Source: Carpediemonas membranifera BICM (Eukaryota > Protista > Fornicata). Taken from it: a stretch of DNA of 64,000 nt. Positions 18,983-61,664 of the stretch are shown in pieces (position 1 is the first letter of the stretch; every line of letters starts with the position of its first letter). Location: NCBI GenBank assembly GCA_019828565.1, contig JAHDYR010000025.1, positions 682,001 through 746,000 of the forward strand. Reading direction: 5' to 3'. The translations under genes were made by a program, and so were the position numbers. The notes beneath the pieces are model-generated. The model was not told where the DNA came from, did not search any database, and worked only from the letters and a program-made list of their open reading frames with translations.

Positions 18983-21900
18983 TGTCATGACGACCTCATT
19001 TAATGATCAGTCTTATTTGGTCAATGATCTCAAACCTGCTTCTAAATTTCACTCTCTCAATTGTTTGGGTACCACAGTAATTACTGCATGCATTTACCTG
19101 AAACAAAACTCAACAACGCCCCGTTCCTGCGAAAGGCCACCACCAAGTCGTGGTATACTTTCCGTCAAGACTACGAGCAGTATGCTGCCCGTGAAGCCGA
19201 TCCGATCGTTGCCTTTGACCTAATCGAAACGCAGGTCCTAGAGGTTCTTAAGATCCGAATCCCTGAACTTGAGGGGTTCCTTGAGTACGCTAATGAAACG
19301 CCGGATGAAGAGCCGGCCGATACCTCTGAACTCAACGAGGCCTTTATCACCATGGTAGACGAGCTGATGCAGCCTCTGGATGAGGTGGACGCTTTAGATC
19401 GCTTTAAGGACTTGTCGTGCGGCTCTGAGGGTAACCTCATTGACAACATGGCCGCGTATGCCCTGGCGTATAAGCGTCAAGTTCGTAACTGTTGTAAGGT
19501 TCGGCCCACGGAGAAGCTCATCGTCGATGCCTTTGTTGCTGGCATCAGGTACGGTCGCTTGAAGGAGCGAGTGAATGCTAAGAAGGCGAAGACGCTTGAC
19601 GAGACGATCGCCGAGGCATTCATCCAGGCCACGGAAGCAGAGAAGGCTCGCAGAGAGCACCAGCGTGTGGAGCGAGAGAGTGCGACCTCCGCAACGATGA
19701 CTAAGGCTAAGGAGAAGTCGGAAACTGCTTGTGAGTACTGCCAGCGCAAGGGTCACACTGCTGATACGTGTTGGAAGCGTAAGCGTGACGAGCGTGAGGG
19801 AGTAAAGGGGCAGAAGTACGTTCATCTTAATGCTTTGGTCGCGGAGGACCGCGACAACAGACCCATTGGCGAGGTGGGCATCCTGGGGAGAGTGTTGGCG
19901 TTCCTTTATGACACAGGGGCCTCTGCCGACTTTATATCCCAATCCCTCGTCAAAGAGCTCGGCCTAGTCGTCGAGCCCGACCATGCTAAGGTTAAGCTGG
20001 CCACTGGTACGATTTACAACTCACCCGGCATTGTTAAGTTGAGTGCAGATTTTGGAGTGTTGCCATCTACTGGGCGGAGAACTCAAGCTGCTCTCAATTT
20101 GCGGGTGCTACCCGGGCTGAAGCCGACATTAGTTATGGGAATATCGACATTAAGTGCGTTGGGGCTAATCACGATCGTCAAGCCGACGATGGAGAATTCT
20201 GGAGAGCCACACTTCGCGGAGCTTGATGAAGATGAAGTAGACGAGACGTTATTTACCCTTGCTGAAGCGGAGCACGAACTACAGATACGTAGCTTCCCTG
20301 AAGAGACTAATACCATCCTAAGCAAGTACAAAGACGTTCTCGGCGACATTTCGCAGCCAGCAGACGTTCCACCCTTCGAACTGGTTCTTACAAACCAGAA
20401 GGTTATCAACATCCCTCCATACCACGTCTCGGCTGAAGAAAGAGAGGATATGCAGCGCCAGACGGCGCAGCTGGAGGATCTGAATGTGATTGAGGAGTCT
20501 ACGAGCAACTATAACAATCCTACGGTGCTTGTATGGAAGCGCGATCGCACCCGCAGGCTCTGCTTGGACTTTCGGCGCCTTAACGACGCGACGGAGGACT
20601 TCGATCACGACCTCCCTATCATTGACGATCTGGTAGCAAGACTAGAGGGTAAGACCCTCTTCGCTAAGCTGGACCTAAGCAAGGCCTTTCACCAGATTCC
20701 TATGACCAAGAGCTCACGCAGACTAACGGCGTTTACAGTTGGGAAGCGTAAGTACCAGTACAAGCGTTTAGCTTTCGGACTCAAAGGGGCCGCAGCCTTC
20801 TGTCAGAAGACCCTCGAATCCGTACTAGGCGATGCACTGTGGACACGGTGTCTCGCATATGTAGACGACATAGTAATATTCGGAGAGAACCAGAGAGAGT
20901 ACCTCGACAATCTGGACTATGTCTTGAGAAAGCTCAACTCGGCCAAGTTGAAGCTGAATCTGTCCAAGTCTGAGTTCGGACTGACAGAAATAGAATACTT
21001 GGGCTGGCTTGTGAATGGCGACGGCAAGCGAATCGCGCCTGACCGCCTAGAAGGCATCGACCGCCTAACCAGCCCGAGAGATGTTGCCGGAGTCAGAACC
21101 TTACTCGGGTTCACGAACTATTTTAGCCATATGATTCCGAACTACGGCAATATGATGGAGCCAGTCCTGGCTCTGACGAGAGCCAAGGAAGAGTTCCGTT
21201 GGGAGAAGGCCCAACAAGATGCCCTAGTCGACATCAAAGCGACCCTATCTCAGAACAACATGTTAAGTCACCCCAAGCGTGGCTGCCAATTAATCCTACA
21301 AACCGACGCGAGTGACTACGCTGTCGGGGCAGTTTTGTTACAGATCGAAGACGGGGAGGAGCGTCCGATTGCTTTCTATTCCAAGACACTATCGGATGTT
21401 CAAAGAAGGTGGAGCACCTATGAAAAGGAAGGCTTCGGCATTTATTACGCTATGATCAAGGCCGAGCGGTTCCTAGTAGGCAGGCCGTTTACTGTGAGAA
21501 CGGACCACCGGAATTTGCTGTATATCGCGACAAGCACGAACGCTAAGGTAACTAGATGGCGCATGGCACTGGAAAGGTTCGACTATTCCGTCGTACACGT
21601 GCCTGGTCAAGCGAACGGTGCTGCCGACGCGCTATCTCGCCTATGCGGTGCAACAGTCGAGGCAGATGATCACGCCACGTGGATCTCCGAGGTTCACGGA
21701 GGCATACACGGCCATCTCGGAGCGAGAGCGACGGTGAACAAGCTTATATCGCTCGGTAGGAGGTGGAGGGGCATGTATAAGGACGCAGAGGAGTTTGTCC
21801 AGTCGTGTCCTGTGTGCCAGGTCACGCGCAAGACGGCCAAGCCCGTCCAACACTTGTGCCACCGTACGGCAGGTCGCCTGCCGTTTGATGTCGTGCAGGT

Positions 21901-23327
21901 AGACACGATCGGACCCATCGCGGAGAGCGAGGGTCTGCGGTACGTGTGCGTGTTAATTGACACGTACTCGAAGCTAACTATGCTGGTCCCCACGCGTTCG
22001 ACGGACGCAGATGCCGCGGCAGGGGCAATTTTGGCCTGGGTGGGTCACTACGGAATTCCCCGGGTGATTCACAGCGACGGGGGCAGCCAGTATAGAAATA
22101 AGCTGATTGACGCTCTAATGGAAAGGCTCGGGTCGCAACATCACGTCGGCACGCCTTACCGCCCGGGTTCTCAAGGAATAGTTGAGAGGGTCAACGCCGA
22201 GGTTAAGAGGCATCTAGAGACGCTAATGCTCGATCTGCAGGAGTTTAGATGGACGCGGCTACTACCTTTGGCTCAGTACATCATTAATTCAACATCTGTG
22301 GCCAGGACAGGCCTATCGCCACTGAATTTGCTTTATAACCAAGACGTGGTCGTAAGACCAGAAGAGATCATGAGCAATGAGAGCAAGATGCCATTTGAGG
22401 CCTTCAAGCGCAGCCTAGAACTACAGAGAGTCATCCAAGACCAGGCGCTGCAACAACAAACACCATCAGAAGCATCACACGTGGCCCTATCGAACAAGCC
22501 AGTGCTGGTAACGACCACTGTCGGCCGCCGCACGAAGCTGGCTGGGCCAATGTGGTGCCAGGGACCCGCAGAGTCGCCGAACGTTTACTACGTGGAGAAC
22601 CTGACGACAGGCGTAGTGGCTAAGGTCCATGCCGAGCGTCTAAGACATTTTGAGTCTGACGCGACAAGGGCTGAGTTGACACGGCTCGCGGCCCAGAGAG
22701 TTGACGAATATGTCGTAGAAGCGATCGACTCTCACAAATTTGAGGACGGCGTCCTTCACCTACATGTGCTGTGGGAGGGGTACCTCGAGGAAGAGGCGAC
22801 ATGGGAACGCTTCAACGCCGACCTTGATGAACTTAGGGCGTTTGAGGAGTACCTCGCAGACAAACCGAGTTTGCGCAGAAAACTCCGAGGTCAAAGGAAA
22901 TTAGCTTCCTATAGGCAGCGCTAATAACCAACGGCTCATCAAAAAGCCATTTTGGGGTTTTGCCCAGTTGGTGACCGCAGCCTAGGGGGGGAAGAGCAGA
23001 ACGTTGGAATCTAGTTACTGATATTGGTTATTTCTTATGTTCTACACCATTCTGTCCGCTATTTGTTCGTTTAGAACAGCGTTCTTCAGACTATTGTGCT
23101 CAATTGCGTTTTTGACTTCACTGGAGTCGGTCTGGCGGGTTTTGCATTTCGCCGGACTTGAACCGTTAGAATTTTTGCTGACGGTTGGGAGGCACGTTTG
23201 AGCTTGTGGACGGTTTGGGATCATGGGGGGAAGTGTCATGACGACCTCATTTAATGATCAGTCTTATTTGGTCAATGATCTCAAACCTGCTTCTAAATTT
23301 CACTCTCTCAATTGTTTGGGTACCACA
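18983..23327 (+). mobile_element. Chromovirus (Ty3/Gypsy) LTR retrotransposon 1, full length
   Basis: Identical 94-bp LTRs TGTCATG...ACCACA at 18983-19076 and 23234-23327; TSD GGTGC at 18978-18982 and 23328-23332; PPT GGGGGGAAG 23225-23233. Confidence 0.97.
19088..22924 (+). CDS. Single Gag-Pol polyprotein: CCHC knuckle, protease (DTGA), RT (YVDD), RNase H, integrase, chromodomain
   Basis: Motifs in Gypsy order; EYVVEAIDSH...VLWEGY..EEATWE chromodomain. Confidence 0.95.
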   Translation: MHLPETKLNNAPFLRKATTKSWYTFRQDYEQYAAREADPIVAFDLIETQVLEVLKIRIPELEGFLEYANETPDEEPADTSELNEAFITMVDELMQPLDEVDALDRFKDLSCGSEGNLIDNMAAYALAYKRQVRNCCKVRPTEKLIVDAFVAGIRYGRLKERVNAKKAKTLDETIAEAFIQATEAEKARREHQRVERESATSATMTKAKEKSETACEYCQRKGHTADTCWKRKRDEREGVKGQKYVHLNALVAEDRDNRPIGEVGILGRVLAFLYDTGASADFISQSLVKELGLVVEPDHAKVKLATGTIYNSPGIVKLSADFGVLPSTGRRTQAALNLRVLPGLKPTLVMGISTLSALGLITIVKPTMENSGEPHFAELDEDEVDETLFTLAEAEHELQIRSFPEETNTILSKYKDVLGDISQPADVPPFELVLTNQKVINIPPYHVSAEEREDMQRQTAQLEDLNVIEESTSNYNNPTVLVWKRDRTRRLCLDFRRLNDATEDFDHDLPIIDDLVARLEGKTLFAKLDLSKAFHQIPMTKSSRRLTAFTVGKRKYQYKRLAFGLKGAAAFCQKTLESVLGDALWTRCLAYVDDIVIFGENQREYLDNLDYVLRKLNSAKLKLNLSKSEFGLTEIEYLGWLVNGDGKRIAPDRLEGIDRLTSPRDVAGVRTLLGFTNYFSHMIPNYGNMMEPVLALTRAKEEFRWEKAQQDALVDIKATLSQNNMLSHPKRGCQLILQTDASDYAVGAVLLQIEDGEERPIAFYSKTLSDVQRRWSTYEKEGFGIYYAMIKAERFLVGRPFTVRTDHRNLLYIATSTNAKVTRWRMALERFDYSVVHVPGQANGAADALSRLCGATVEADDHATWISEVHGGIHGHLGARATVNKLISLGRRWRGMYKDAEEFVQSCPVCQVTRKTAKPVQHLCHRTAGRLPFDVVQVDTIGPIAESEGLRYVCVLIDTYSKLTMLVPTRSTDADAAAGAILAWVGHYGIPRVIHSDGGSQYRNKLIDALMERLGSQHHVGTPYRPGSQGIVERVNAEVKRHLETLMLDLQEFRWTRLLPLAQYIINSTSVARTGLSPLNLLYNQDVVVRPEEIMSNESKMPFEAFKRSLELQRVIQDQALQQQTPSEASHVALSNKPVLVTTTVGRRTKLAGPMWCQGPAESPNVYYVENLTTGVVAKVHAERLRHFESDATRAELTRLAAQRVDEYVVEAIDSHKFEDGVLHLHVLWEGYLEEEATWERFNADLDELRAFEEYLADKPSLRRKLRGQRKLASYRQR

Positions 23328-23342: not shown

Positions 23343-26300
23343 TGTGCTATTGAAGGGTCAAACAATGTGTTTACTGAGGAGGTTTAGACCCGTGGTGGTG
23401 TAAATGGTCCAAACTAGGGGATTTGAATGCATCACTACCCCCCCTCCTTCAATGCGATGTCTAATCCTGCCGAGTGCCATTTGATTGGCGGGCCGACATT
23501 CTGAGCTTCAAATCATCAAACCGCTTCATGGCTTCCTCTAGGGGTGTATTCACCTGCAGGTACTGCTGAAGTATCGCATTGCCTCTCATATCCTCGTCTG
23601 TTGGGTTTCTCCACGTGTCGTCTGCTGGTTCGTATCCTAACCAGCGCACCTTCACCTCTGGCGTCTTCATCACGTCCTTCTTGATCCTGTGCGTGACGAT
23701 CTCTTTGATATACGTGTGCATACGGTCCTTGGCGCATTCTGCCTTCGCCTTCTCCTCATCCCAGTCGCCTTCTGCGAGCTTCAGATGCTTCACGTGCTTC
23801 TTATACGTCTTGTTCGTCTCGGGGTCCCTTATCACGAACGAGCTGGCGTTTCCAGGTGCCTTCTTGACCACCTGAAGTGGGCCTCTCCATCGTAGCTGGT
23901 ACTTCCCTCTCTGTTCTGCATCCCTGTCGACCATGACCCACGCCTTGGCTGTGATACGGGTCGGTGTCCTCTTGTTGTGCTTGTCCTGTCTGGCCTTGGC
24001 CGCGTCGTACGTCTTCTTCGCCGCGTCCCTGCGCTGTTGAGCTCTCATCTTCTCGTTCCGGACCATCTTGTCAATGACGTCCGTAACGTCGGCTCTCTCC
24101 TGGTTCGACAGTGTCATCTTCCCTTCCCGCTCTGTGGACACCACTAGCTTCCAGGGTGACGTGCCTGTCGTGGCAGATCTAGCCTGGTTGATGATGTTCT
24201 GAACCGCTGGCAGTAGGCCCATCCATTGCTTCGTGCCGCGCTGATGCATCTCGTCCCTGAGGTGGCGGTTCACTTCGCGATTCCTGCGCTCAACGATCCC
24301 ATTCTCCTCGTGATGGTATGGGGTGGTCGTCTTCGCGCCCCCGCCTAGCTCTGCCGCGAACGACTTGAACTCCTTCGAGTCGAACTGCCGTCCGCTATCG
24401 GTCACCCACTCGACCGGGGGCGGGAAGTGTGTGAGGTATCTTTCCCTGATTGCTCTGATGGTGGCGGCGGAGGTCACCGTCTTCAGTGGGCACAGGGTGA
24501 CCCACCTCGTCGACTCCTCCACCAGCACCAGGATGTACCGGTAACCCTGGTCTGCCTCTGCCATGTTGATGGTGTCGGCGAACACGCGACTGAACGGCGA
24601 CGCTGGCATGCGCAGCTGCTCCTGATATTGCTCGCGTGACCGGTGTTCGGCGTTCTTCTGGCACACGGGGCACTCCTTAACCATCCTCTGGACGTCCGTG
24701 TCCGCAGTGTCCCAGCGCAATCCCTTATCCTCGAGCTTCCACAGCGTCTGGTCAACCCCGTGGTGACCGGTGCCAGGTCCGTGAACGGACTTGAAGCGTG
24801 GCAGCTTCTGGGACTCGGGTATGGCCGGGAACGTGCCCTCCTCTTCGGGCTCGGCGTCAAGGGTGTCGCCCTCGTCTGTCCCGGCTGCTTCCTCGGTGTC
24901 GCTTTCGTCTGCCTCGTCGCGCTCGCGGTCAGGCTGTCCTGCCGCCTCTTCGCGGAACCGAACTCTCGGCTCGTCGGCGGCGACTTCTTCCGACTCTTCC
25001 TCCGCTGCGTCGACTGCACACATCACGGACACGATCGCACCCTGCTGCTCTGGTGTCAGGCTCTCGGCTTCTGCGCGGGGCATTCTGGACAGGCCGTCCG
25101 CGACCGTATTAGACTTACCAGGCACGTGGGTGATGCTGAACTTGAGGTTGCCCAGCTCAAGTGCCCAGCGCTGCACCATGGGGTCGACGTTGCCCCACGT
25201 GTACACGAGGTTACGGTGGTCCGTGAACATCTCAAACTCCCCTTGTGGCTAGGAACCGTCTCATCTTCCTCGTGGCCGCTATGATGGCGAATGCCTCCTT
25301 GCGGTAGGTGCTCCACTTGCGCTGGCTTGCTGTCAGGGCCTTGGAGAAGAACATCACAGGTCGCTTCGACCCGTCGTCCTCGACTCTGACCAGCACTGCG
25401 CCGACACCGGTGTCGGACGCGTCGGTGAACAGCTGTAGGCGGTCGTCAGGGCCCGGTGTGACCAACAGTGTGGGGGAGGTGACGATCTTCTTCAGTCTCT
25501 TGAACGCCTCTCTCTGGGGGTCGCCCCACACGAACGTCTGGCCCTTGATCTCCAGCTTGCGGATCGGCTCGGTGATGTCCGCGTAGCCGGGGATGAACTG
25601 GGAGAAGAAGTTGAAGATGCCCAATGTGGACCTGACGTCACTCACGTTTGTCGGGTCGGGCAGCTCCTGGACACCCTGGACGCGCCATGGGGGGATGCGC
25701 TTTCCCTCCGCCGACACTATCCATCCGAGGTACTCCACCTCCGTCAACCCGAAAAAGCACTTGTTCTTGTTGAGCTTCAGCTTCTTCTCTCGCACCCGGT
25801 CCATCACCCGCATCAGGTTCGCCTGGTACTCTTCCCAGGTCGACCCATAGACGATGATGTCGTCCACGTACACAAGACACGCCGTGCCCAGCATGTCCGC
25901 GAAAGCCTCCTCTAAGGCCTCTTGCATATGGCCAGCCGCGGTGGCAAGGCCGAACGGCATCGTAGTGTAGGTATAGTGCCCCTTGGAGTACGTGAACGCC
26001 AGGTACTCCTGTGTGTCGGGGTGCACCGGGACCTGATGGAAGGCCTTGCTGAGGTCAAGTGCTGCGAAGTACTTGTTGCCCCTCAGCCTCTCGATCAGCT
26101 CTTCCGTCGACGGCAAGTCGTGCTGAGTCATGGACGCCAGGAGCTCGTTCAGTGGCGAGTAGTCCATGCACGGCCGCCACGTCCCGGCCTTCTTCCGCAC
26201 CATGACCACTGAGCTGCTCCAGGGAGACTTGGTTGGGATGATGATCCCGCTTTCCTCCAGCTTCTGCATCTCTGACCGGAGTTCATCCTCCACCTGTCTT

Positions 26301-27989
26301 GGGAACCTTCGGGGCAGACGGAAGTAGGGTCGGGCGTCCTTCTTCAGCGTGACCTTGAACGGCTTAAGGTCTGCTGGTTCGCCTGCATCGCCGAAGCAGT
26401 CGCTGTATCTCTCGGCCCAGTCCTCTGTGAGCTTGGAGATGACCTGGATGGGGGTCTGCTTCGGTGTCAAGGTTGCGGTTGATTAGGCCGAGGGAGTCAA
26501 TCACCTCCATGTTGATGAGGAACGACTCGGCCTTGTCCATCGCATACCAGGTCGGCGTCGCGGTGACCTCTCTGTCGAGGTGGAGGGTGATCGGCACATC
26601 TGACAACACTCGGTAGACCCTCCTCATCGACTCGTCAGCCAAGCGGACTGTCTCGCCCCGCGTGGCGATCTTCAGTCCCTTCTCGACGGCCCAGTCCCTC
26701 GGCACGACGCTGAACGAGGAGCAGGTGTCCATGCGGACGATCAACTCTTCGCCCAGCAGACTGGCCTTCTCCTGCCAGATAGTCTTGGACGCTAACATAA
26801 AACAGAAAGGATACTCAGATGGCTTTACAACTGTGCACTGGTGCGACTTGTGGCCGAACTCGCCGCACCTGAAGCACTTCGGCTCCTCGTGTGGGCAGTC
26901 GGCCGAGTCGTGACCCTTTTCGCCGCAGTTGAAGCAGCCGCGGCCCCCTTGCCGCCGCTCAGGCTTGGCCCCCTCGGCCGCGCCGTCATTGCGTCTGCGC
27001 TCTCCCGTCCTCGCTGGCATCTTCCGCTCCTCTCTCGGCTTGCTCTGCAGTGACTCGAGCTGCTTCTGTAGGGCCGCGAGCCGGCTGCTCGGCACCAGGT
27101 CAAACTCTCGCATGGCATCTGTTCGGGCCCGTAGGTACTTTGCTATGACCTTCAACGACTTCGCGACTGTTGACTTGGAAAGAACAACAGAGCGAAGAGA
27201 CGATGCGATCGTCTCGTCATCGAGGCTCGCCAGAACGATCTCCTGGAGCTCTCTAGCATCCAGGGATCCGACCTTCTCGAACAGATCTACCATATCCGTG
27301 AACACATGGCGGTAACGGGTGAAAGAGGTCTCACGGAGCTTGCGAAGCTCGCGGTACGCGCGCTGAAGACTGATATTGGTTAGTGTGGCCTCAGCCATCA
27401 CCACCCAGCGCTCATCGCGCTTCCTCCTCGTTGTCTTCGCCTCCTTCTTCTCTTGGTCTTGAGCCATGATGTACCGGAGCAAAGCGTCGTCCCGGGCGGT
27501 CGTCTTGCCGCTTGTCTTCTTCTTCCGGGCCGGGTTAGCGATGAGTGTGCTCCGGGCGTCATCCTCGGAGTCGCTCTGGGCGTGCGCGTCTTCGCCGCCC
27601 CTGCTGCTGTCGCTACCCTCGTTGGCGCTGAACATCTCCTCGTCGTCTTCACTCGAGCTGTCAGAGCTGTCATCGGAGCTTTCGTCGTCCTCCAGAGCTT
27701 GGTATGCGTCCTTGATACTTGTTCTCACTTTCGCGTCGATGCACTCGAAGAGGGTCTTCGGCTTGACCTCATCTTCAGCATAGAGTGCGTAGCTCATGCG
27801 GAACCTCACCCAGTCGGCTGCAGTGTGCCGGAGATACTTCGGGTAAGTCCCTTTTGGGTCGTCGTCATCGTCATCCTTCTTCATGCGTAGTAATTACTGT
27901 GCTATTGAAGGGTCAAACAATGTGTTTACTGAGGAGGTTTAGACCCGTGGTGGTGTAAATGGTCCAAACTAGGGGATTTGAATGCATCA
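23343..27989 (-). mobile_element. Chromovirus LTR retrotransposon 2, full length, different family
   Basis: Identical 92-bp LTRs at 23343-23434 and 27898-27989 (sense TGATGC...AGCACA); TSD CGACT at 23338-23342 and 27990-27994; G-rich PPT on the minus strand next to 23435. Confidence 0.97.
23461..27884 (-). CDS. Gag-Pol of element 2, split by two apparent 1-nt homopolymer frameshifts (~26452 and ~25240)
   Basis: Two CCHC knuckles, DTCS protease, YVDD, FTDASD, DDE integrase, chromodomain VRWLGYEPADDTW; removing one base from each homopolymer restores a single ORF. Confidence 0.9.
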
Positions 27990-29562: not shown

Positions 29563-29590
29563 CCTCGCAGCAGTCGCTTGTGCGAGGAGA

Positions 29591-31885: not shown

Positions 31886-31989
31886 GGTGCAGCACTCCTC
31901 TTTTGGAATGTGCAGAATAAGGAATAGCCAAACGACATTTTGTCGTTCGAAATGATGAAAGATCAAATCGGGAGCTGAATCAAACAGAA

Positions 31990-35013: not shown

Positions 35014-35041
35014 CCTCGCAGCAGTCGCTTGTGCGAGGAGA

Positions 35042-35812: not shown

Positions 35813-35958
35813 GCCTTGGCCTTGTTGATTTTATGACGTGTGGGGCCGAGGCTCCGCGGGTAATGGTAAATTTAGTCATTAATACTTGAACACTAGCCTA
35901 GCACACCCTGGGGCAAGGGTGGCGGCCATCAGCAAGGGTTGGCCTTATCGCGCGCACG

Positions 35959-37066: not shown

Positions 37067-37440
37067 GCAGGTCGGGCCAGTCAGAGTTCACGACGGCCTG
37101 TCTGACAGCTCTCCAGGGCCGGGTCGAGTCAGTGGTTTTGGTGGCACGCTTTGGGTGGAGATCAACGTGCTGGGTACATCTACACAGTTGCCCAGTTGTG
37201 TATAAAGGACTCACACCACGTGGTTGACATAGACAATCTCGTCGGCCCGAAGCACGAAGAGGAGCTCGTCCATGCTGCTGACATCCATCGCCATGGGCTC
37301 TCCGAACGTCGGCATGTCGACGTTCCTTGCCTCCTCGGTGCAGCACTCCTCTTTTGGAATGTGCAGAATAAGGAATAGCCAAACGACATTTTGTCGTTCG
37401 AAATGATGAAAGATCAAATCGGGAGCTGAATCAAACAGAA

Positions 37441-38430
37441 ATGAAGCACTTATTTATTGCTTTAGCAGTATTCGCGACGTTTACGTCCTCAGCTTGTCTT
37501 GATCTCCCAAATTCATTCGATGCCCGCAAGAAATGGGGCTCCTCCTGTCCTGTGTTGCATGACATCAAAACTCAGGAACACTGCGGATCTTGTGCCTTTC
37601 TTAGCATTGCACAAGTTGTATCCGATCGCCACTGCATCGCCACCGGCAGCTCCATTCCCTTTTCCGCCCAGTGGCTGATGTCCTGCGTGGACTATGAAAA
37701 AGAGCCTGACTGGGTACCTTGCAATGGAATTCCGGGAAACATGGTGTTTGACGCCGTGGTTGAGCACGGGATGGTCCCAGAGACCTGCCTTCCATACAGC
37801 TCGAACGACTGGGTGACTCCCGCCTGCCCCGCGACTTGCAACGACGGTACCGCATTCAACAAGCGCACATACACGATCAAAGAGTACGGCATTATTGACA
37901 GTGCCTCTGATGACATTGTGACTGCCATCCAGGAGGAGATCTTCCTCCGCGGGCCGCTGTTCGTGGCCATAGATGTGTACTCCGACTTCAATGACTATGA
38001 GACTGGCGTATACACCTGCAACCAGCATTCAGACGAGGAACCGGGCGCACACGCCGTTCGAATCGTCGGCTGGGGCGTCGAGGACGGCATCCCATACTGG
38101 CTCTGCACCAACACCTGGGGCCGGGAGTGGGGCAGCGATGGCGCGTTCAAGATCCGCCGTGGCGTGAATGAGTGTGGGATCGAGGGAGGTTTCAGCGCCT
38201 TCCCGATCTTCGACCGCAGTGGCTGGGCTCTGGCGAGGATGTGGGCAGGCAAGCTGGTGTCAGGCGTTTCATTCCTAATCGCTGGCCTTCAGTTCTGCAG
38301 CGATGTTCTCTCGGTGAAGCCGTTGGCTGCGGTGTCCCTCCGTTCCCGTCGCAAGGATTTGTGTGAGAGCAAGGAGAAATCCGAGTACGCTGGTCGCGGG
38401 CATCGAGCTATCGACTTAAAGATGGATTGA
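37441..38430 (+). CDS. Cathepsin B-like protease (copy 2, intact, 329 aa)
   Basis: Signal peptide, oxyanion Gln and catalytic Cys/His/Asn present. Confidence 0.92.
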   Translation: MKHLFIALAVFATFTSSACLDLPNSFDARKKWGSSCPVLHDIKTQEHCGSCAFLSIAQVVSDRHCIATGSSIPFSAQWLMSCVDYEKEPDWVPCNGIPGNMVFDAVVEHGMVPETCLPYSSNDWVTPACPATCNDGTAFNKRTYTIKEYGIIDSASDDIVTAIQEEIFLRGPLFVAIDVYSDFNDYETGVYTCNQHSDEEPGAHAVRIVGWGVEDGIPYWLCTNTWGREWGSDGAFKIRRGVNECGIEGGFSAFPIFDRSGWALARMWAGKLVSGVSFLIAGLQFCSDVLSVKPLAAVSLRSRRKDLCESKEKSEYAGRGHRAIDLKMD

Positions 38431-38928
38431 TTGGCCGACTGCATTTACTGAGTTCAACCGACAACTGCATCATGCCGGGCAGCGAGTGTCAGATCACGAT
38501 CAAAGTGAAGCCCGAGTGGCCGAGACGTTGGCCGCATGCTGGCATGAGTTGTACCGGGAGACCCGGATTGAGATGGGACGCGGAAACAACGATGCGCATG
38601 CACCAGGCCAGGGGAAGACCCACGGGATCCTTTAGGACAGCTGACTCACCGCTTCAATGCTCTCATTGGCACCCCTTTCCCACTCGGTCGACTGCATCTG
38701 AGATTGATCTATTGAAAGTGCCGTCTTCTTCTCCTGGCACCAGCGCAGCCGGGCAGGGTCACTCGCCCTCAGCACCACTGTTCACCCAAGACTCTCTTTC
38801 ACACTCATGCCGAGGCGCCTGTCTCTGGCCGGGGCACAGTTTCCCTGCCAGACATGAGGCCTGGTGCATGGGGTACGGCGGGGTGCGTGTCCGACTGCAG
38901 CCGAGTTGCTTGGCAACGAACGAACGAC

Positions 38929-40589
38929 ATGAGCAATGAAGGCAAGAAGACGCGAGAGGCGCTGATCACTGCCCATCGGCTCTCAATCACGGCTACGAGC
39001 AGCATCGCAGGCGACATCCCCTCGCTCATGGCCTGCGCGTACCAGCGCCACTTCAACGAGGAGATTCCGCTCAGATCTGGCGTGCTGTCCGCATTAAGGA
39101 CGTTTATCCACAATCATACAACCACAGACGCGCCGCAAGATGGCCACGATCTCGAATCACTCCTCGCCACGCTCTCAGAGATCCCCCCTCTCGAGCCATC
39201 CGCTCAAGCCCTCCTCGACCGCGCCCGCTCGATCCTCACCAGCGGCCCCCTGCTGTCCATGAACGTCGAGCTCGCGGATGGCGAGAGCTCCCGGTCGCGC
39301 TGCACACGCTGAACCAGGGCGCGGTGTGGGCGTGTCTGGTGGGTGGCGGGGCCAACCCCGACCTCGAGGGCAGGGTGCTGAAGAAGGCTCGAGAGGAGCA
39401 GCCAGGTAAGACTAATATGCATGACAAGATCCGCAAGGCTCTCACCCCCGAGGCCAAGTGCCTCTGGTTCCTCTGCCGCAAGTTCTTCTTCTCGCTGAAC
39501 GTCGCCGAGAAGGACGGCGAGAGCTATCAGTGGAATTGGCACGACATATGCCACCACCACCGCATGTACATGGGCCGACTCTTCATGCTCAGTACTGCCA
39601 ACCACACCGCCCTCACCAGGGCCAGGATGCCCAGGGCCCTCGAGGTCGAGAGCAACGTGATCACCCACATCGCCAGGACGCCCAAGGGCATGTGGAGATG
39701 GGGGTATAGCGGAAATGGCCAGCTGGGGTTCAAGTCATCTGAGTTCGTCGACCCGACCCGCCTCACCTTCCCCGCCTGTACCAAGGTCGCCGAGCTCGAG
39801 GCCAGCCTGCCCCCTTGGGAGAAGCATACGATGGTGACTGATGTGTCGATGAAGGGATGGCAGACGTTCATAGTCACCCCGGTCGGCACTGTCATGGCGG
39901 GCGACGAGACACGATGGTATACAGACCTTGTTCAAGAATACGATAACCGCTTCCACCCAGTCGCTGTGCCCGCTGGATTTATCCCAGATCACATCGTGCA
40001 TGAATATGATATTGTCATACTCTCCATGTGCAATCGGTATGTGATCAGTGGCAATAACTGTCATGGCCAGCTGGGACTCGGGCACGAGAATGATATGGCT
40101 GGCTTCGAGGAGCTTCCTTTCAGAGTCGACCGGATCATGCCATCTCATTCCTTCCATGTCTTCCTCAGCAGCCGTCAGCTGCTGTTCGCCGGGCAAGTCC
40201 TCTCTCATATCGTCCAGTCTGGCCTGCTGCCAGGATACAGAGAGGGCGACAGGTGCCTCACAGCCACCCCGCTCCGCTTCCTTGCGAGGGTCAAGGGGTT
40301 CTTTTGTGACCAGTTGACTCTCGTCTGGGTCAATGAGGGCAGCACTCATCTGTGTGATTACGACAAGCAGTGCTCTGTGCCCTTTGAGGCGACAGCACTT
40401 GGCAGAAGAATGTCAGGTGGCCAGTGTGTCCATTCGTTCCGCGACCCCACCGACCAGTGGCTCAAAGTGGGCAGAGTGTCAGATGGGGTGGCTGAGCTGG
40501 TCGCGTGTGTGCCGCCATCTTCTCGAGAAGAGCGTGAGATTACCCCAGTCGACGTCGACCCGTGGACCCCGGCCGAGACGGGCATCTGA
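38929..40589 (+). CDS. RCC1-like family copy C (1-nt deletion ~39284; retains the family C-terminus)
   Basis: Near-identical to A/B except patch 39648-39719 and the C-terminus, which resembles copy D. Confidence 0.8.
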
Positions 40590-51360: not shown

Positions 51361-52092
51361 CTAGCCAACCATCAGAGCCTGTACAGGGTTAGTAGCAGGC
51401 CACTTGTTCGCTGCAAACACCAGCAGTCGACGAACAGCCTGCATCGCCCGACGGGTTGGGGCGTGCTTCATGATATGCGCGATTCTCTCATTCTGAAGCC
51501 GGTCAAACGCCTTTGACGCATTATAAATAGCGTCGTCCAACCCAACCGTCCAGTTAGTTTGCCCAATAGTGACTCGGTTGGACAGCTCCTGCTCGGCGTC
51601 ACTGTAGCACCGGGACAGGACCCGAAGACAGACGTCCTTAAGGCCAGCCACGATCTCCTCGTCCGCCTTGTGCTGGTAGAGGGCCTTGAGAAGGGGGCGG
51701 AGGGCGACACGCATGGAGACGAAGGAGGCGCGGCCCGGATCGTCTCGGGGGAGTTTGCGGACGTCGTAGCGCCACTCGACCAAGAGTCTGTAGAGGGTGA
51801 TGAGGACGGTGGTGCTGTTGGTGGCGACAGGCGAGGCCTCGGGCAGCTCGCTGATGAGAGTTGCGATGTGAATGAGGCCGTTGGAAGTCCCAAGGGGATA
51901 TTTGGAAGGATTATTGGTGAATTTGGCGAGGAATGGGGACGAATAGGTGTCAATGGCATCTCCCTGGACCTGGTCACCGGTTTCTGCCAAAAGAGCAACT
52001 GTGCCCTTCTTAGCTGGTTGCACAGCGACCAGTACAGCTGTTTTAGACTGCTTTGTGTGACCACTCCCCTTCAAACGCTTCAACCTGTCCAT
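51361..52092 (-). CDS. PRPF18: Prp18 splicing factor
   Basis: LRPLLKAL, TIGQTNWTVGL, AHIMKHAPTRRAMQAVRRLL.FA..KWP. Confidence 0.8.
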   Translation of the reverse strand: MDRLKRLKGSGHTKQSKTAVLVAVQPAKKGTVALLAETGDQVQGDAIDTYSSPFLAKFTNNPSKYPLGTSNGLIHIATLISELPEASPVATNSTTVLITLYRLLVEWRYDVRKLPRDDPGRASFVSMRVALRPLLKALYQHKADEEIVAGLKDVCLRVLSRCYSDAEQELSNRVTIGQTNWTVGLDDAIYNASKAFDRLQNERIAHIMKHAPTRRAMQAVRRLLVFAANKWPATNPVQALMVG

Positions 52093-52109
52093 TTAAGAGC
52101 TGCAAACGC

Positions 52110-52190
52110 TGTTGCGCAGTATAAACACATTCGTTCGAACCTCCCAGACAGGGCCTGAAAGGAACGATCAAAGTGCCAAACTGTACAACA
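52110..52190 (-). ncRNA. Candidate omegaRNA 3' scaffold hairpin
   Basis: Minus strand: UGUUGUACAGU pairs with ACUGCGCAACA, UCGUUC with GAACGA, CCUUUCAGGC with GUCUGGGAGG; several G-U pairs work only on this strand; starts right after the stop and ends at the element end. Confidence 0.6.
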
Positions 52191-53340
52191 TCATCCGTCC
52201 GTAGACGAATGTTGGCGGTTAGCCAATTGATGATACTGGAATGATGTTTGAAGACGTGGGATCAATGTGCGACTGAACGGAGAGCCACTGAGCTCATCTT
52301 CCGTGGCAAGAGAACGCCACAGGATGTTCTCTGCAGCACTCTTGTCCCGATGATCAACATTCAGAGCATCAGGAACTGTTGCGCGCCACTGAGCACCACG
52401 GCACTGTCGATTTTCGCAGAGCATCACACGATGTGGGTGAACGTGCTGGTCATCACGCGCTCCCGTAGAAGACTTTCAGGCGAATGGGGGTGGCGATGGG
52501 ATGGTGGCGACCGAACTCCCGAGCCAACTGTTGGCCGCAGCGGGCGAAGTGCTTCTGGCGAAGGATGTGGTTCGCAAAGCGCACTCGGCGGAAAGACTTA
52601 CGCATTCCAGCCTCGAAAATGTCGTTCGCGTTGTCCAGCACAAACCTAATAGAGTTGTTGATACTCACTAGTCTTGTGCTCTTGAACGACGCGGCCGTCA
52701 TATCAAAGCCGAAACTTGGCGTCTTAGTGTATCCGCACTTTGGAAGGACGCCGGAGCTGGCGGTGCCATCGGGGTGCCTGATGTAATACCCTCCGATGGA
52801 CCTCGCGCCCGGGTCGAACCCCATGAGGTGGGCATCAGGATCCGGCGCGGGCGGAGCCTCGGCATTATTGGTCCCGAGTCGGGGGCGCTCTTTCTCCCGC
52901 CCTCTCGCTCGCTTTCGAACAGGCATGCTCGCATCATGTTGTGGCCGATAGCGGCCGAAGCCTCTCTTAATAGTCACCGCCACACAGACCCCATCGGTGC
53001 TCAGGCTGAGCAGACGGCCCATTGACCTGGGGTTGTCCCGGTAGCATCTTTTCTGCTCTTCTGTCAACGGTTTGGTGGCGTGTGGGAGTGTGGGATTAAT
53101 TCCCACACGATGACAGAAATTATCATTCAGTAGGCCCATCGTTTCACTGTAGGCCATGAAGCCCGGTCGGACGGGGGCCATGGGCACGATCGGCACGAGG
53201 CGAGGCTGGCGGAGCGACATCGAGTACTCCCCGTTGAAGTGGCTGATGAGGCCACTCAACGTCTCCACTCCGTCAGCAATTGCCCAGACGCAAGAGAGAA
53301 TGCGTGGGGCAGTCTCGGAGACTGGGAGACGATGAACACC
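52191..53340 (-). pseudogene. Fanzor1/TnpB-like RuvC nuclease, internally deleted (RuvC-II Glu and first CxxC missing) and probably N-terminally truncated
   Basis: STDGVCVAV, GFDPG (RuvC-I), RRVRFANHILRQK (bridge helix), VFYGSA then a frame break; HRVMLCENRQC...HRDKSAAENIL (Zn finger half, RuvC-III); 5' limit approximate. Confidence 0.8.
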
Positions 53341-53752
53341 ATTACCAGCATATACAAGTGTAGAAGTGAATTTAATGTGGAATAGAAAACAATGAGACGA
53401 CGTGTGAGCGATTGTGATGTTTGCTGTGCTGACGTCCACGAAGAAGACGCTTTGTGGAAGCCCTGGAGAAGACGATCTCCCTACCGACTTAAGACGTGAG
53501 TAGGAGGGAGACAAGGCAGTGTTGCGCAGTATAAACACATTGTTCGACCTTCAATAGCACAAACGCCAATACCTTAAACTGCGGCATATTAGAGTGCCTG
53601 GGGTGCGGCCGGGGGGCTTGTGGCACTGTGTATCGGCAAGCCAGCATCCATTGGCCCTAGATTTGCTCCCTGCCTTACGAATGGCTCCCCTCGCTCCGGC
53701 ATAGTCGGGTCAACAGTTAAGATAAGCAGTAGCAGTTTAGGGTATCCGGAAC

Positions 53753-53781
53753 AGCAGCAACAGCAGCAGCAACAGCAACAG
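53753..53781. repeat. CAG/CAA microsatellite
   Basis: cagcagcaacagcagcagcaacagcaacag, just downstream of the GT8 stop. Confidence 0.8.
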
Positions 53782-53795
53782 AAACAACACAAGTG

Positions 53796-55676
53796 TCACA
53801 CGAACAGTGCGAGCGTGTCTCTCCGCCACCACCAGGCCCCCGCGTGCCGCCGCACGAACGACTCGAAGGCCACGTCCTTGGCCCCAGGGCGGGGGTCATG
53901 GACACAGAGACACCGGTCACACACCCCGCCCTCCAGCCCCTTGACATCGTTAGTGACCAGTCCAGGACCGTGGCCGGCGATGCACTTGCCCAGGTCGACC
54001 ATCCATCGCTTGTGGGGGAGCTGGAGGAAGCGGCGGAACCAGTAGAGCTCGACCGCTTTCATGTGGATGAAAGAGGTGTCGCGGTACTTGGGGAAATACT
54101 CAGAGTAGATCTGGAACAACGTGCCGTCTTGCATGGAGAGATAGTTGCCGATCAGCGGCAGATTCGCACGTTCGTTGGCGAGGTAGCAGGCCAGGATCTC
54201 CTGGTCCGAGAAGGCCCACATGCGGTCGAACAGGCACGGGGAAGAGGGTTGTTTCGCCCAGCCCACCATCGCGTCCAGCATTGCGTGGCCGTCCAGTCGG
54301 TTCAGATCATACACTACAAGACCGCCGTTCAGGAACCAGTCCTGCATCCGTTCAGCTATCGCTACCACGGCGCTGGGGTGGCAGAAGACCTTGTCTGGGT
54401 TTGACAGGGCGAGCATGTCGGCGTCCACGGTGGCGATCTTGGAGAGACGACGGCCGGTTGGGAGGAAGTCGTTGATGCGGAGGATGTTGAGGCGCTCGAG
54501 AACAAGCGTGTACGATGGCTTGATCGGGTCGAGAAGTTTGATGAGCTCCGAATCAATACTAAGATCGATTCGTATCCATTCGATCCCCATTTCATCGCAA
54601 AGATCCTCTGCGTCGGGATATACAAAGTCGGGATCCTGTACTACGATGAGAATACGCGTGTCGGTCGTTGTCCTCAAAGCCATCGCCGACCAGAGCGTCA
54701 TCCTGGCGTAATACTGCATCGTTTCATGTGCTGCTGCCGGAATAAAGTAAGAAAAGGCAATCTCGGTCTTGTTGATTGGCGCTGTGTCGCAGAGTGGGGC
54801 ATCAACCCAGTCCCGCGATGACAAGCGGGCATCCAGTCTGGTCGCGTGGAAGCTGAACGCTCTCTGGTGGGCGGACCCTTCCCACTCGAACACCTTCATG
54901 GGCTTGGCCGCGGGCTTCCAGGAGAGGCCGTGCCCCGGGAATACGAACGCCGTCCTTGGTGCGAAGCGGGGGGGCGGGGGGTCGGTCCGTGTGGGGTCGA
55001 CCACGTCTACGTCGGACGCCGTGAGAGGATGGATCGGCACGGTGCCGTTGGCGGTGGGCATGGTCTTGCCTGACAACTCGGTGTTGAACCCTACGCCTGC
55101 AGACGCGAGGGCGAGGATGGCGTTGCGACCCTTGGCAATGCGGAGGCCAGTATGGTCGGGGCGGGTGTACACGCCGGGTTTGCGGTACGCGGAGGGAGAG
55201 ATAGGGCCCATCGCGATGTGCCTGGGGTCGACAAGCACGACGAGGGCGTCTGGGTCTCTCGCATGGGCAAGGTGTGTCCGTAGGGCAGAGTTGGCGTCGG
55301 AACTGGTCTCGTGAACGGTGACGTTAGGGAACGTCTTCCAGAGCTCACCATCGGCCCGAAATGCGGCGGTGGTGAACACAGATGTGTGGGGAATGTTCGA
55401 GAAAAGAAGAGCGTCGCACATCGACATAAGGAGACGGCTCACAGACTTTGATTCCTCTATAGTGGTCGCATAGGTAAATATGTACACGGGACTGGTGTCG
55501 GTAGCAGGATAGCATTCGCCGTCGAGGCAGGAAGGAGTCAAGAACCCGTACACGAAGATGAAGAGCGCTATGACGATTAATAGAATGCCAACGTACAGAA
55601 ATCTGTTCTTTTGAAACATATCAAGCAAATGTTGCATTGTCAAGACGGCATTAAGCCGGTTTCGCCCTCCCGCCAT
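53796..55676 (-). CDS. Type II membrane glycosyltransferase, GT8-like C-terminal domain
   Basis: N-terminal TM; VDADMLALSNPDKVF (DxD), FLNGGLVVYDL, SDQEIL. Confidence 0.75.
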   Translation of the reverse strand: MAGGRNRLNAVLTMQHLLDMFQKNRFLYVGILLIVIALFIFVYGFLTPSCLDGECYPATDTSPVYIFTYATTIEESKSVSRLLMSMCDALLFSNIPHTSVFTTAAFRADGELWKTFPNVTVHETSSDANSALRTHLAHARDPDALVVLVDPRHIAMGPISPSAYRKPGVYTRPDHTGLRIAKGRNAILALASAGVGFNTELSGKTMPTANGTVPIHPLTASDVDVVDPTRTDPPPPRFAPRTAFVFPGHGLSWKPAAKPMKVFEWEGSAHQRAFSFHATRLDARLSSRDWVDAPLCDTAPINKTEIAFSYFIPAAAHETMQYYARMTLWSAMALRTTTDTRILIVVQDPDFVYPDAEDLCDEMGIEWIRIDLSIDSELIKLLDPIKPSYTLVLERLNILRINDFLPTGRRLSKIATVDADMLALSNPDKVFCHPSAVVAIAERMQDWFLNGGLVVYDLNRLDGHAMLDAMVGWAKQPSSPCLFDRMWAFSDQEILACYLANERANLPLIGNYLSMQDGTLFQIYSEYFPKYRDTSFIHMKAVELYWFRRFLQLPHKRWMVDLGKCIAGHGPGLVTNDVKGLEGGVCDRCLCVHDPRPGAKDVAFESFVRRHAGAWWWRRDTLALFV

Positions 55677-59138: not shown

Positions 59139-59725
59139 CGTGACGATGCTGTTGGAAACTGACAGCGCTTTGTGCAGTTTATGGCGAATCAATTTATCTC
59201 ATGTAAACAGCTGGCTCAGGCCGACAGCACGACTGGGAGGAGCTCCAGTGGGCTGAACAGTCCCAGCTTGACACTCCACTTGTCGTACACCAAAAGGGTA
59301 GCGGAAATGAGGGCATCAGCCATGGCGAGGGCGATCTTACGGGTAATGATATGGAATTTATGTCATATTAGATGATAAATCAACGTAAATACATCCTGGT
59401 GACACTGGATTCGAGGCTTTAGTTTGAGTTGGGTCGACAGTTGCCAACGTCGTACGGCAGCAGTCGACTATTTGTTACCCACACAATGCTTGATTCGACA
59501 GTTCTTTGCACACGATGCTGGACACTATGTCCGTTATGGACACCGTGAGGGCTACTATGCTGGTTCCTGTGTCGAATGGTGTTGTCTGGTATGGTGGACA
59601 GGCGGGGTGAGTGTTGGGGTTGTGTCCATTTTGATGGTAAGATCGGATGCACTGCATGGCTAAGCGAGACATGGTTCTATTTATTGGGCCCTGGACGGGT
59701 GTCGGGGACTGGGGTTTTGATGAGT

Positions 59726-61384
59726 TCATTTATGCCAACCACCGACGTCGACTGGGGTAATCTCACGCTCTTCTCGAGAAGATGGCGGCACACACGCGAC
59801 CAGCTCAGCCACCCCACCTGACACTTTCTCCGCGTAAAACCACTGGCCGGTGGAGTCACGGAACGAATGGACATACCGGTCACCTGACATTCTTCTGCCA
59901 AGTGCTGTCGCCTCAAACGGCACACAGCACTGAATGTCGTAATCGTTCAGGTGAGTGCTGCCCTCAGTGACACAGGCGAGAGTCAACCCGTGGCAATAGA
60001 ACCCCTTGACCCTCGCTAGGAAGCGGAGCGGGGTGGCTGTGAGGCACTTGTCGCTGACACCGAATCCAGGCAGCAGGCGCGACCGGGCGATATGGCGTGG
60101 GACTTCGCCGGCGAACAGCAGCTGGTGGCCACTGAGGAAGAAGTTGAAGAAATCATCTGACATGATCCGGTCGACCCTGAAGGGCAGCGACTCAAAGCCA
60201 GTCATCTTGTTCTCGTGCCCGAGCCCCAGCCGGCCATTCCTGTTGTACCCGCTGATCACCTGCCGATCGCCCATGGTGAGGATGACAGTGCTATCCCGTT
60301 CATGTAGGATGTGATCTGGGACAAAGCCAGCGGGCACAGCTACTGGGTTGAAGAGGCGAATGTTCTGCAGCTTGACGGGCCCTGTAAACAAACTTACCCT
60401 GTCGCCCGCCACGACGGTGCCGACCGGGGTGAGTATGAACGTCTCCAATCCCTTCATCGACACATCAGTCACCATCGTATGCTTCTCCCAAGGGGGCAGG
60501 CTGGCCTCGAGCTCGGCGACCTTGGGGCAGGCGGGGAAGGTGAGGCGGGTCGGGTCGACGAAGTCATTACGTGCTGACTTGAGCCCCAGCTGGCCAAAGT
60601 AGCTATTCCCCCAACCCCACAGGCCCTTGGGCGTACTGGCGATTTGGGTGGACCAGTAGCCGTAGACCTCGAGGGCCCTGGGCATCCTGGCCCTGGTGAG
60701 GGTGGTGTGGTGGTTTGTGTAGAGCACGAAGAGTCGGCCCATGTACATGCGGTGGTGGTAGCATATGCCTAGTCCCGTGTACTGACAGCTCTCGCCGTCC
60801 TTCTCGGCGACGTTCAGCGAGAAGAAGAACTTGCGGCAGAGGAACCAGAGGCATTTGGCCTCGGGCGGGAGGGTCTTGCGGATCTTGTCATGCATATTAG
60901 TCTTACCTGGCTGCTCCTCTCGAGCCTTCTTCAGCACCCTGCCCTCGAGGTCGGGGTTGGCCCCGCCACCCAGCAGACACGCCCACACCGCGCCCTGGTT
61001 CAGCGTGTGCAGGGCGACCGGGAGCTCCTCGCCATCCGCGAGCTCGACGTTCATGGACAGCAGGGGGCCGCTGGTGAGGATCGAGCGGGCGCGGTCGAGG
61101 AGGGCTTGAGCGGATGGCTCGAGAGGGGGGATCTCTGAGAGCGTGGCGAGGAGTGATTCGAGATCGTGGCCATCTTGCGGCGCGTCTGTGGTTGTATGAC
61201 TGCGGAAAACCGTCTTGAATGCGGACAGCACGCCAGATCTGAGCGGAATCTCCTCGTCGAAGTGGTGCTGGTACGCGCAGGCGATGAGCGAGGGGATGTC
61301 GCCTGCGATGCTGCTCGTAGCCGTGATTGAGAGCCGATGGGCAGTGATTAGCGCCTCTCGCGTCTTCTTGCCTTCATTGCTCAT
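59726..61384 (-). CDS. RCC1-like family copy D (intact, diverged in propeller loops)
   Basis: N-terminus nearly identical to A-C; WGWGNSYFGQLG, SGYNRNGRLGLG. Confidence 0.85.
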   Translation of the reverse strand: MSNEGKKTREALITAHRLSITATSSIAGDIPSLIACAYQHHFDEEIPLRSGVLSAFKTVFRSHTTTDAPQDGHDLESLLATLSEIPPLEPSAQALLDRARSILTSGPLLSMNVELADGEELPVALHTLNQGAVWACLLGGGANPDLEGRVLKKAREEQPGKTNMHDKIRKTLPPEAKCLWFLCRKFFFSLNVAEKDGESCQYTGLGICYHHRMYMGRLFVLYTNHHTTLTRARMPRALEVYGYWSTQIASTPKGLWGWGNSYFGQLGLKSARNDFVDPTRLTFPACPKVAELEASLPPWEKHTMVTDVSMKGLETFILTPVGTVVAGDRVSLFTGPVKLQNIRLFNPVAVPAGFVPDHILHERDSTVILTMGDRQVISGYNRNGRLGLGHENKMTGFESLPFRVDRIMSDDFFNFFLSGHQLLFAGEVPRHIARSRLLPGFGVSDKCLTATPLRFLARVKGFYCHGLTLACVTEGSTHLNDYDIQCCVPFEATALGRRMSGDRYVHSFRDSTGQWFYAEKVSGGVAELVACVPPSSREEREITPVDVGGWHK

Positions 61385-61425
61385 GTCGTTCGTTCGTTGC
61401 CAAGCAACTCGGCTGCAGTCGGACA

Positions 61426-61664
61426 CCCCGCCGTACCCCATGCACCAGGCCTCATGGCTGGCAGGGAAACTGTGCCCCGGCCAGAGACAGTGCGACCTAT
61501 CCCCGTATGAACCGGCCGTTGTAGTACCGGGAGACCGGAGCGGGGCTCCTGGTGCATCAGTCATGACGCAACGCACACCAAGTCCAAACCATCTTTCCAG
61601 ACATTGCAAATTTACGTATTTATCCAGATTACTGCCGGTCCAGGCCGCCAAGCCCGCACGCATC
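61426..61664 (-). repeat. ~240-bp upstream region of the RCC1-like family, near-identical to 18741-18980
   Basis: Direct sequence match from GATGCGT to GGCGGGGTG. Confidence 0.9.

Follow-up and report, generated by a model that had tools for sequence, protein, structure and literature searches.

A Fanzor-like gene between LTR-like ends in Carpediemonas membranifera: a degenerate copy of a multi-copy element and a candidate for insertion by a chromovirus-type integrase

Introduction

The 64,000-nucleotide (nt) stretch of Carpediemonas membranifera BICM analysed here (contig JAHDYR010000025.1 of assembly GCA_019828565.1, positions 682,001 to 746,000 of the forward strand; hereafter the window, in which position 1 is the first letter) contains an insert with the remains of a Fanzor-like gene between ends that resemble long terminal repeats (LTRs). 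We propose, with the evidence slightly in favour, that the insert represents, in degenerate form, a multi-copy Fanzor-like element with one gene and LTR-like ends, and that a chromovirus-type integrase likely inserted it. Fanzors have been described as cargo of DNA transposons (PMC3627910). The non-autonomous CMe-1A encodes only Fanzor1 and belongs to a DNA-transposon family; the C. membranifera element resembles it in carrying a Fanzor gene without a transposase and in its amplification to many copies, some of them intact, but has ends of the retroviral-integrase type (PMC3627910).

With described Fanzors the family shares a length of about 600-640 residues, the RuvC-I Asp, a zinc ribbon of the form CxxC...CxxC and the RuvC-III Asp, and like them it is multi-copy and carried by a mobile element (PMC3627910, PMC10530073). 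It differs from them in having no significant profile match to described members and no homologue found outside one species, and its carrier has direct LTR-like repeats and a 5-bp duplication, not DNA-transposon ends. A 2026 review reports Gypsy, Copia and long interspersed nuclear elements (LINE) near Fanzor genes, knows of no retrotransposon encoding one and holds that such an element would gain nothing (PMC13565253); in contrast to these nearby retrotransposons, the Fanzor gene here lies inside an LTR-like-bounded unit that is repeated with different flanks. The main texts of PMC10530073 and PMC10711439 mention no LTR, Gypsy element, retrotransposon or metamonad, and the family may be present in supplementary tables or in the Nature 2023 Fanzor paper. 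Full-text search gave no literature linking Carpediemonas with Fanzor, and the pairing of a Fanzor with a retrotransposon integrase is unreported in the literature searched.

Terminal-repeat retrotransposons in miniature (TRIM) and large retrotransposon derivatives (LARD) combine terminal direct repeats, TG...CA tips, a 5-bp duplication, a purine tract and dependence on a helper, and TRIMs carry no gene. The C. membranifera element shares the repeats, tips, duplication and tract and, as proposed below, the helper dependence; it differs in that its repeats are only 41-42 nt long and non-identical, it has no primer-binding site, it carries a protein gene in antisense, and the left/right difference appears to be inherited. 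Ginger DNA transposons have a gypsy-like integrase of their own and long inverted repeats. The likeness to them lies in the TGT...ACA tips, the short duplication and the probable movement by a gypsy-related integrase, and the difference in the direct repeats, the purine tract and the missing integrase.

Results and discussion

Boundaries and terminal repeats of the insert

The ends comprise the following features.

52105..52109, no strand: target-site duplication, left copy AACGC, identical to 53562-53566
52110..52150, plus strand: left terminal repeat, 41 nt, starting TGTTGC, with a tail specific to the left end
53498..53519, plus strand: purine tract, polypurine-tract-like, 19 of 22 purines, with its AG end abutting the right repeat
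53520..53561, plus strand: right terminal repeat, 42 nt, starting TGTTGC, with a 12-nt specific part, about 30 nt homologous to the LTR end of chromovirus 2, and a GCACA end
53562..53566, no strand: target-site duplication, right copy AACGC, read directly

Direct reading and recomputation both gave an insert of 1452 bp (52110-53561) with first letters TGTTGC, final letters GCACA and hence TG...CA tips, flanked by the 5-bp duplication AACGC, as the original prediction, made from the sequence alone, had stated; it was also right that the end chemistry and the length of the duplication are those of both resident Gypsy elements. The terminal direct repeats of about 42 bp that it described are real as direct repeats, while their length was overstated, as about 33 nt are actually repeated. 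The opening 22 nt of the two repeats are identical and 31 of 33 nt align with two 1-nt gaps (score 52; shuffled sequences gave a mean of 10.8 and a maximum of 18), after which, from nt 28-33 onward, the repeats diverge and their final 8-11 nt are unlike. In the inverted sense the tips are identical over about 5-6 nt only (TGT.GC).

Over its terminal 31 nt the right repeat agrees with the end of the chromovirus 2 LTR at 29 positions, with the one substitution and one indel reported previously (score 50; shuffle mean 12.8, maximum 23). An 18-nt core of this LTR-like end occurs three times in the window, in both LTRs of chromovirus 2 and in the insert, against 0.03 occurrences expected. The purine tract ends with AG at 53519, and a purine run with an AG end likewise precedes the 3' LTR in both chromoviruses, in agreement with the likeness claimed. 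In a predicted stem-loop at 53468-53519 the partner of the tract is a run of pyrimidines situated about 20 nt upstream (ATCTCCCTAC ... GTAGGAGGGAGA). No integrase gene was found inside the insert.

Resident chromoviruses

18983..23327, plus strand: chromovirus 1, 94-bp LTRs, duplication GGTGC, TG...CA ends
23343..27989, minus strand: chromovirus 2, candidate helper type, 92-bp LTRs (23343-23434 and 27898-27989), duplication AGTCG, TG...CA ends

Chromovirus 1 has a single gag-pol frame of 1292 residues with protease, reverse transcriptase, RNase H, integrase and chromodomain, and in chromovirus 2 a gag zinc knuckle, protease, reverse transcriptase, RNase H, integrase and chromodomain are distributed over three frames. 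RVT_1, RT_RNaseH, rve, Integrase_H2C2 and Chromo were above the Pfam cut-off in these elements, which assigns them to Ty3/gypsy with a chromodomain. The LTR of chromovirus 1 has no similarity to the repeats of the insert.

Only 15 bp separate the two chromoviruses, which are oppositely oriented, and their LTRs are very short (94 and 92 bp). In both, the 5' LTR ends within the palindrome CAGTAATTACT(G), which occupies the place expected for a tRNA primer site (TGG...) and suggests an unusual mode of priming; the window contains no tRNA gene for primer comparison.

The Fanzor-like gene of the window copy

Related gene models of the species are designated here by P numbers. Three parts of the gene were recognised in the insert.

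53329..53497, minus strand: 5' leader of the Fanzor gene, in the window copy fused to codon ~230 by an internal deletion
52456..53328, minus strand: Fanzor-like middle fragment (tblastn), with WED-like strands, RuvC-I and the VFYGSA strand
52194..52457, minus strand: Fanzor-like C-terminal fragment (tblastn), with the second zinc-finger pair and RuvC-III; stop codon 52191-52193

The gene is antisense to the polarity of the LTR-like repeats and purine tract, as had been proposed, with reading frames on the minus strand at 53328-52456 and 52457-52194. The middle fragment aligned with residues 25-317 of P0001 (95% identity) and residues 104-392 of P0002 (87%), and contains the RuvC-I motif GFDPGAR (52801-52821) and the VFYGSA strand (52456-52473), which occupies the position of the RuvC-II Glu in canonical TnpB. 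The C-terminal fragment aligned with residues 451-538 of P0002 (94%), and contains CENRQC of the second zinc-finger pair (52401-52418) and the RuvC-III motif HRDKSAAENI (52323-52352). A tblastn extension of P0016 and P0032 past 53561 was rejected as over-extension with no real identity.

Two losses separate this copy from the full-length members. The N-terminal one begins shortly before the start codon and extends to about residue 230, with its junction at 53328/53329, and contigs of other copies diverge at 53328, having coding sequence on one side and the leader with the start region on the other. The second, at about 52456/52457, removes 58 residues (P0002 392 to 451, from the VFYGSA strand to RDDQHV) that hold the alternative Glu and the first CxxC; an intact 171-nt piece absent from the window copy is present in a contig of run X5. 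The lack of the catalytic Glu and of half of the zinc finger, noted at the outset, is thus borne out by the 58-residue gap, and a further ~230 N-terminal residues are gone as well. The window copy is degenerate, and the two deletions disable it. A fixed deletion breakpoint at 53328/9 common to P0002 and P0009 was considered and dropped: the junction in these models shows TCGTC microhomology or may be a predicted intron, and the other joints lie at other points.

The window frames had no match in Pfam and NCBIfam, and a phmmer search of the PDB gave only spurious DARPin repeats. The 3' 255 nt fold somewhat better than shuffled sequences (z -2.3; 5 of 200 shuffles equally good), a weak sign of a structured guide RNA, and Rfam gave no match.

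A family confined to Carpediemonas membranifera

All 40 matches of the first protein search (best 95% identical) and all 28 of the profile search belong to C. membranifera. Exhaustive phmmer (21 matches, 15 of them as in the first search; library without organism names) gave no relatives outside the species, and none were found in metagenome contigs, with the protein query or with the 22-nt end pattern, or in viral contigs. After cluster look-ups the family comprises at least 117 distinct gene models with different locus tags, one unrelated 56-residue archaeal cluster entry having been excluded. They form three subfamilies of 45 (the window's type, median 94% identity to P0171), 21 and 51 gene models, which are 40-44% identical to each other, and 29 of the 117 retain all four catalytic motifs. 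Full-length members have about 600-640 residues (P0210, P0238, P0197), and in P0009, P0011, P0037 and P0048 the leader is translated before the true N-terminus MEIYTIKAS....

The public names of P0016, P0025 and P0003 ('cytosine deaminase', 'Chromosome partition protein Smc' and 'RRXRR domain-containing protein') look wrong or incidental, and several other members are publicly named 'Transposase'. Elsewhere in the window, 31 residues encoded at 59241-59333 (plus strand) are 71-74% identical to the N-terminal extension MNSRGLNRFSLTAHLSY... of P0029, P0232 and P0238, and judging by this similarity the stretch may be a fragment of the upstream module of that other Fanzor subfamily. The 9-residue peptide encoded by the left inner junction (52139-52165) also occurs in P0232. 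At the peptide level only, the N-terminal extension common to P0029, P0232 and P0238 was suggestive of an LTR-like motif, an idea that was dropped.

Relationship to Fanzor and TnpB

In the family alignment the motifs follow in the order GFDPGAR, a strand ending in YG(S/A), NE(F/D)RT, VCPxC, CxNPxC and HRDKSA. The sequence (V/A)(F/A)YG(S/A) stands at the position of the canonical RuvC-II Glu, and the Glu of NE(F/D)RT follows about 42 residues on. Fanzors have Gly or Pro at the canonical RuvC-II position and another Glu about 45 residues on, a rearranged RuvC-II that matches the C. membranifera family in motif order and spacing (PMC10530073).

Searches with language-model features pointed the same way, P0012 and P0210 scoring 0.98 (210 and 214 of 256 features shared) against giant-virus clusters that carry PF07282 (Cas12f1-like TNB) and PF26935; these two queries represent two subfamilies with about 40% identity between them, and only TNB/TnpB-type clusters were indicated. 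For the Atlas model of P0210 all eight structural matches listed were of the TnpB/TNB type, with predicted models on both sides, and the best three (TM 0.59-0.64 over 473-511 residues) were giant-virus TNB-domain proteins. PF07282 was the commonest sub-threshold Pfam match (13 of 35 members), and in every one of the weak profile matches the aligned part was the TNB zinc ribbon. In hhalign comparisons with TnpB references (E. coli K-12 TnpB and nine non-redundant TnpBs chosen from 43 candidates in 124 loci) the zinc ribbon and RuvC-III motifs aligned to their counterparts, below significance.

The motifs, language-model features and predicted-fold matches argue strongly that the gene family is Fanzor/TnpB-like. 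The 'Fanzor1-type' assignment of the original prediction stands only in this broader form, which covers Fanzor1 and Fanzor2 alike. That prediction had named the absence of a TnpB/Fanzor profile match as evidence against it; sequence profiles did stay below threshold, and motifs, features and predicted folds are nonetheless of the TnpB/TNB type.

Other copies and their shared ends

Four gene models (P0008, P0170, P0169 and P0189) read through the same left repeat, because a frameshift near the 3' end lets their frames run through the 3' region and on into the repeat. P0008 and P0170 read ...PFRPCLEVRTMCLYCAT, after which P0008 goes on with QKFARRHG... and P0170 has a stop codon; P0169 reads ...PFRPCLGGSNNVFILRN, then RSGTVGW..., and P0189 reads ...YTAQ, then HD and a stop. 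The left repeat, read as its reverse complement, gives the tails of P0008/P0170, P0169 and P0189 in its three frames, and past the left tip the window reads AFAAL, SVCSS and QRLQ in the same three frames. All four depart from the window no more than 2 nt outside TGTTGC, so that five insertions have five flanks, among which no common target motif was found on the left side; the flank tails of the other copies had no match to the window's flank (best E 0.19-0.54, elsewhere). As the same left tip is followed by different flanks in other copies, the repeats are real ends of the family. The left-type tail recurs in the window, P0008, P0170 and P0169, and P0189 shows its outer part only.

On the right side, P0009 and P0180 start at an ATG inside the right repeat (nt 21) and pass through the purine tract into the leader. 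Residues 1-73 of P0009 are 92% identical to 53540-53325 (E 1e-41), and P0180, which opens with MCLYCATLPCLPPTHVLSR, has the junction of right repeat and purine tract as in P0009.

Contigs were found for the same region, 305 of them on the insert stretch in run X2. Three span the left repeat and lack C at 52132, as do the gene models, and a 99-nt contig of another copy spans 53466-53549 with 4 differences and links the inner region to the right repeat. The contig joints 52495>53392, 52869>53439 and 52365>52847 are internal-deletion derivatives. GACC/GACCC variation at 53547 among contigs mirrors the LTR of chromovirus 2. Runs X5, X7 and X8 gave inner pieces only, and no contig bridging an empty site was seen in the contig runs. 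Flank coverage in X1 and X2 extends only over the two neighbouring reading frames (51500-52103 and 53794-54200) and not over 53593-53774. From this gap X1 and X2 were suspected to be RNA-derived, a suggestion not adopted, as an uncovered part proves nothing.

A possible mechanism of movement

A full element would measure about 2.3 kb and consist of a repeat, purine tract, 190-nt leader, gene of about 640 codons, about 40 nt and a second repeat. This leaves no room for a transposase, and the element would therefore depend on a helper and be moved in trans. A retroviral-type integrase may recognise a linear DNA copy by its tips, TGTTGC on the left and the U5-like ...GCACA on the right, and join this copy with a 5-bp stagger. 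We infer a chromovirus integrase, as did the original prediction, because the tips are TG...CA, the duplication is 5 bp long, a purine tract is present and the right tip is nearly identical to the U5 end of a chromovirus.

For the DNA copy itself we envisage non-canonical synthesis by the reverse transcriptase of the helper. The first strong-stop DNA would be made on co-packaged helper RNA and jump to the 28-nt stretch shared by the repeats, in the right repeat, so that the right tail would be re-copied from the helper in each round and the left tail inherited. We propose this helper-templated strong-stop because the left tail is constant in the copies and the right tail resembles the R-U5 of a helper; the variation at 53547 fits it without proving it. 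We prefer helper-templated reverse transcription over DNA-only movement. The nuclease of intact copies would take its guide from an RNA that corresponds to the 3' end of the gene. Spread by homing into empty alleles, suggested in the original prediction, is a hypothetical further step. More tentatively, and short of an even chance in our estimate, the whole Fanzor family of this free-living metamonad (more than 100 copies in three old subfamilies) may ride on LTR-like ends, be inserted by a chromovirus integrase and have its right end re-copied from helper RNA.

Evidence against the proposal and alternative explanations

Several points weigh against insertion by a chromovirus-type integrase or against the assignment of the gene. 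Only the window copy shows the duplication and a complete right end plus flank, and neither gene models nor contigs gave a second copy showing both ends; of the prediction that other copies would have the same ends and duplications of their own, the first part is supported by the left end in four other flanks, and a second copy's duplication was not seen. The gene models may contain predicted introns, and their protein tails reflect the DNA only indirectly. The inner ends of the insert have no similarity to those of either chromovirus, only about 31 nt being shared. No primer-binding site was found, there being no TGG start after the left repeat (past 52150), and CAGTAATTACT had no match inside 52110-53561 with up to 2 mismatches allowed. 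A promoter plus R would hardly fit into an LTR of 42 nt, and the purine tract doubles, in the predicted fold, as a hairpin arm. Canonical reverse transcription cannot maintain the difference between left and right tails, because it makes both LTRs alike, whereas the tails differ and the left type recurs in all five left ends seen. As regards the gene, PF07282 reached at best 15 bits against a cut-off of 26.3, with no significant Pfam match (PF07282/PF01385), in the PDB profile search alignment A1 found Cas12f at E 0.67 and A3 nothing, and hhalign against the nine bacterial TnpBs was not significant (P 0.15; E 0.016, probability 2.8%). Two AlphaFold models were poor (pLDDT 41.6 and 42.7), so that the fold evidence rests on the Atlas model of medium confidence (pTM 0.52).

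These profile results would suit a gene family unrelated to Fanzor/TnpB, a zinc-finger protein of a lineage-specific repeat with no significant match in Pfam, NCBIfam, PDB or hhalign and no homologue outside the species in three large searches. We give this little credence, since the order and spacing of the motifs are those of the rearranged RuvC site, the Atlas feature and structure searches from two subfamilies indicate only TNB/TnpB-type clusters, and the weak profile matches all align the TNB zinc ribbon. Chance or nesting, by which a Fanzor element with other ends would lie inside or beside LTR debris and the repeats would be target sequence, is very improbable and largely refuted. It would accommodate the far greater number of contigs on the inner parts than on the repeats, and one contig that has another LTR-like end before the start of the repeat (loose end at 53519). 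However, four copies diverge no more than 2 nt outside TGTTGC and not at the inner edge of the repeat, the 5-bp duplication outside the repeats is perfect, and the two halves of a split target should complement each other, whereas the repeats are overlapping copies. On the same ground an LTR was rejected as the target into which a Fanzor element had inserted, and a Crypton-like site-specific core was ruled out by the differing flanks of the five copies.

Movement as a DNA-only transposon, with a DDE transposase or integrase from another locus (Ginger-like, or domesticated from a chromovirus) to cut or copy the element and paste it, accords with the role of Fanzors as DNA-transposon cargo (PMC3627910). 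It would also account for left and right tails that stay distinct in the copies seen, as if the DNA itself were copied, for the missing primer-binding site, and for repeats too short for LTR functions. We nevertheless consider it unlikely, because the ends are direct and not inverted repeats (the inverted sense giving only TGT.GC), the purine tract has its AG end exactly at the repeat boundary, and 29 of 31 nt agree with a resident chromovirus at the end of its LTR. A transposase of this kind was not seen, and no genome-wide search for one was made; moreover, retroviral-type integrases are not known to excise DNA. The terminal direct repeats, TG...CA tips, 5-bp duplication, purine tract and multiple copies would equally be expected of a canonical TRIM/LARD element, with LTR-to-LTR transcription, priming at a primer-binding site and regeneration of both LTRs in each cycle. 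This is improbable in our judgement: the left tail is unlike the right one and the left type is present in every copy where it is readable, no primer-binding site was found, the repeats measure only 41-42 nt, and the presence of a gene conflicts with the definition of TRIMs. The TRIM-like element of the original prediction is therefore not a canonical TRIM, because its repeats differ consistently and it lacks both a primer-binding site and the post-LTR motif of the chromoviruses.

Implications

In the current view TnpB and Fanzor are tied to excising transposons, the nuclease cutting the emptied site and the element being restored from the sister copy. With 29 intact gene models and three subfamilies about 40% identical, it can be argued that the nuclease has been kept for some other benefit. 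If insertion by a chromovirus-type integrase is true, this would be the first Fanzor on a copy-and-paste, integrase-inserted element, and an OMEGA-type nuclease could pay its way without an excising transposon. The family is very distant in sequence from described Fanzors, which would widen the known range of compact nucleases.

Neighbourhood of the insert and other features of the window

The insert is on the upstream side of a Prp18-domain gene, only 12 nt from its ATG (52090-52092, minus strand), and a contig of this gene ends at 52103, so that the gene's upstream region now belongs to the element. Tf1-type chromoviruses tend to insert close to promoters. In the spacer on the other side of the insert there is a CAG/CAA triplet repeat (53744-53793).

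At 27990-40405, starting exactly at the edge of chromovirus 2, a 5.45-kb unit is repeated in tandem nearly three times with 98.5-99.6% identity. It has RCC1-like, ThiF-family and papain-type protease frames, and an inverted partial copy of it, 88% identical, is found at 59743-61498. Positions 3819-4843 and 5837-6862 form a 1026-bp inverted duplication with 99.9% identity.

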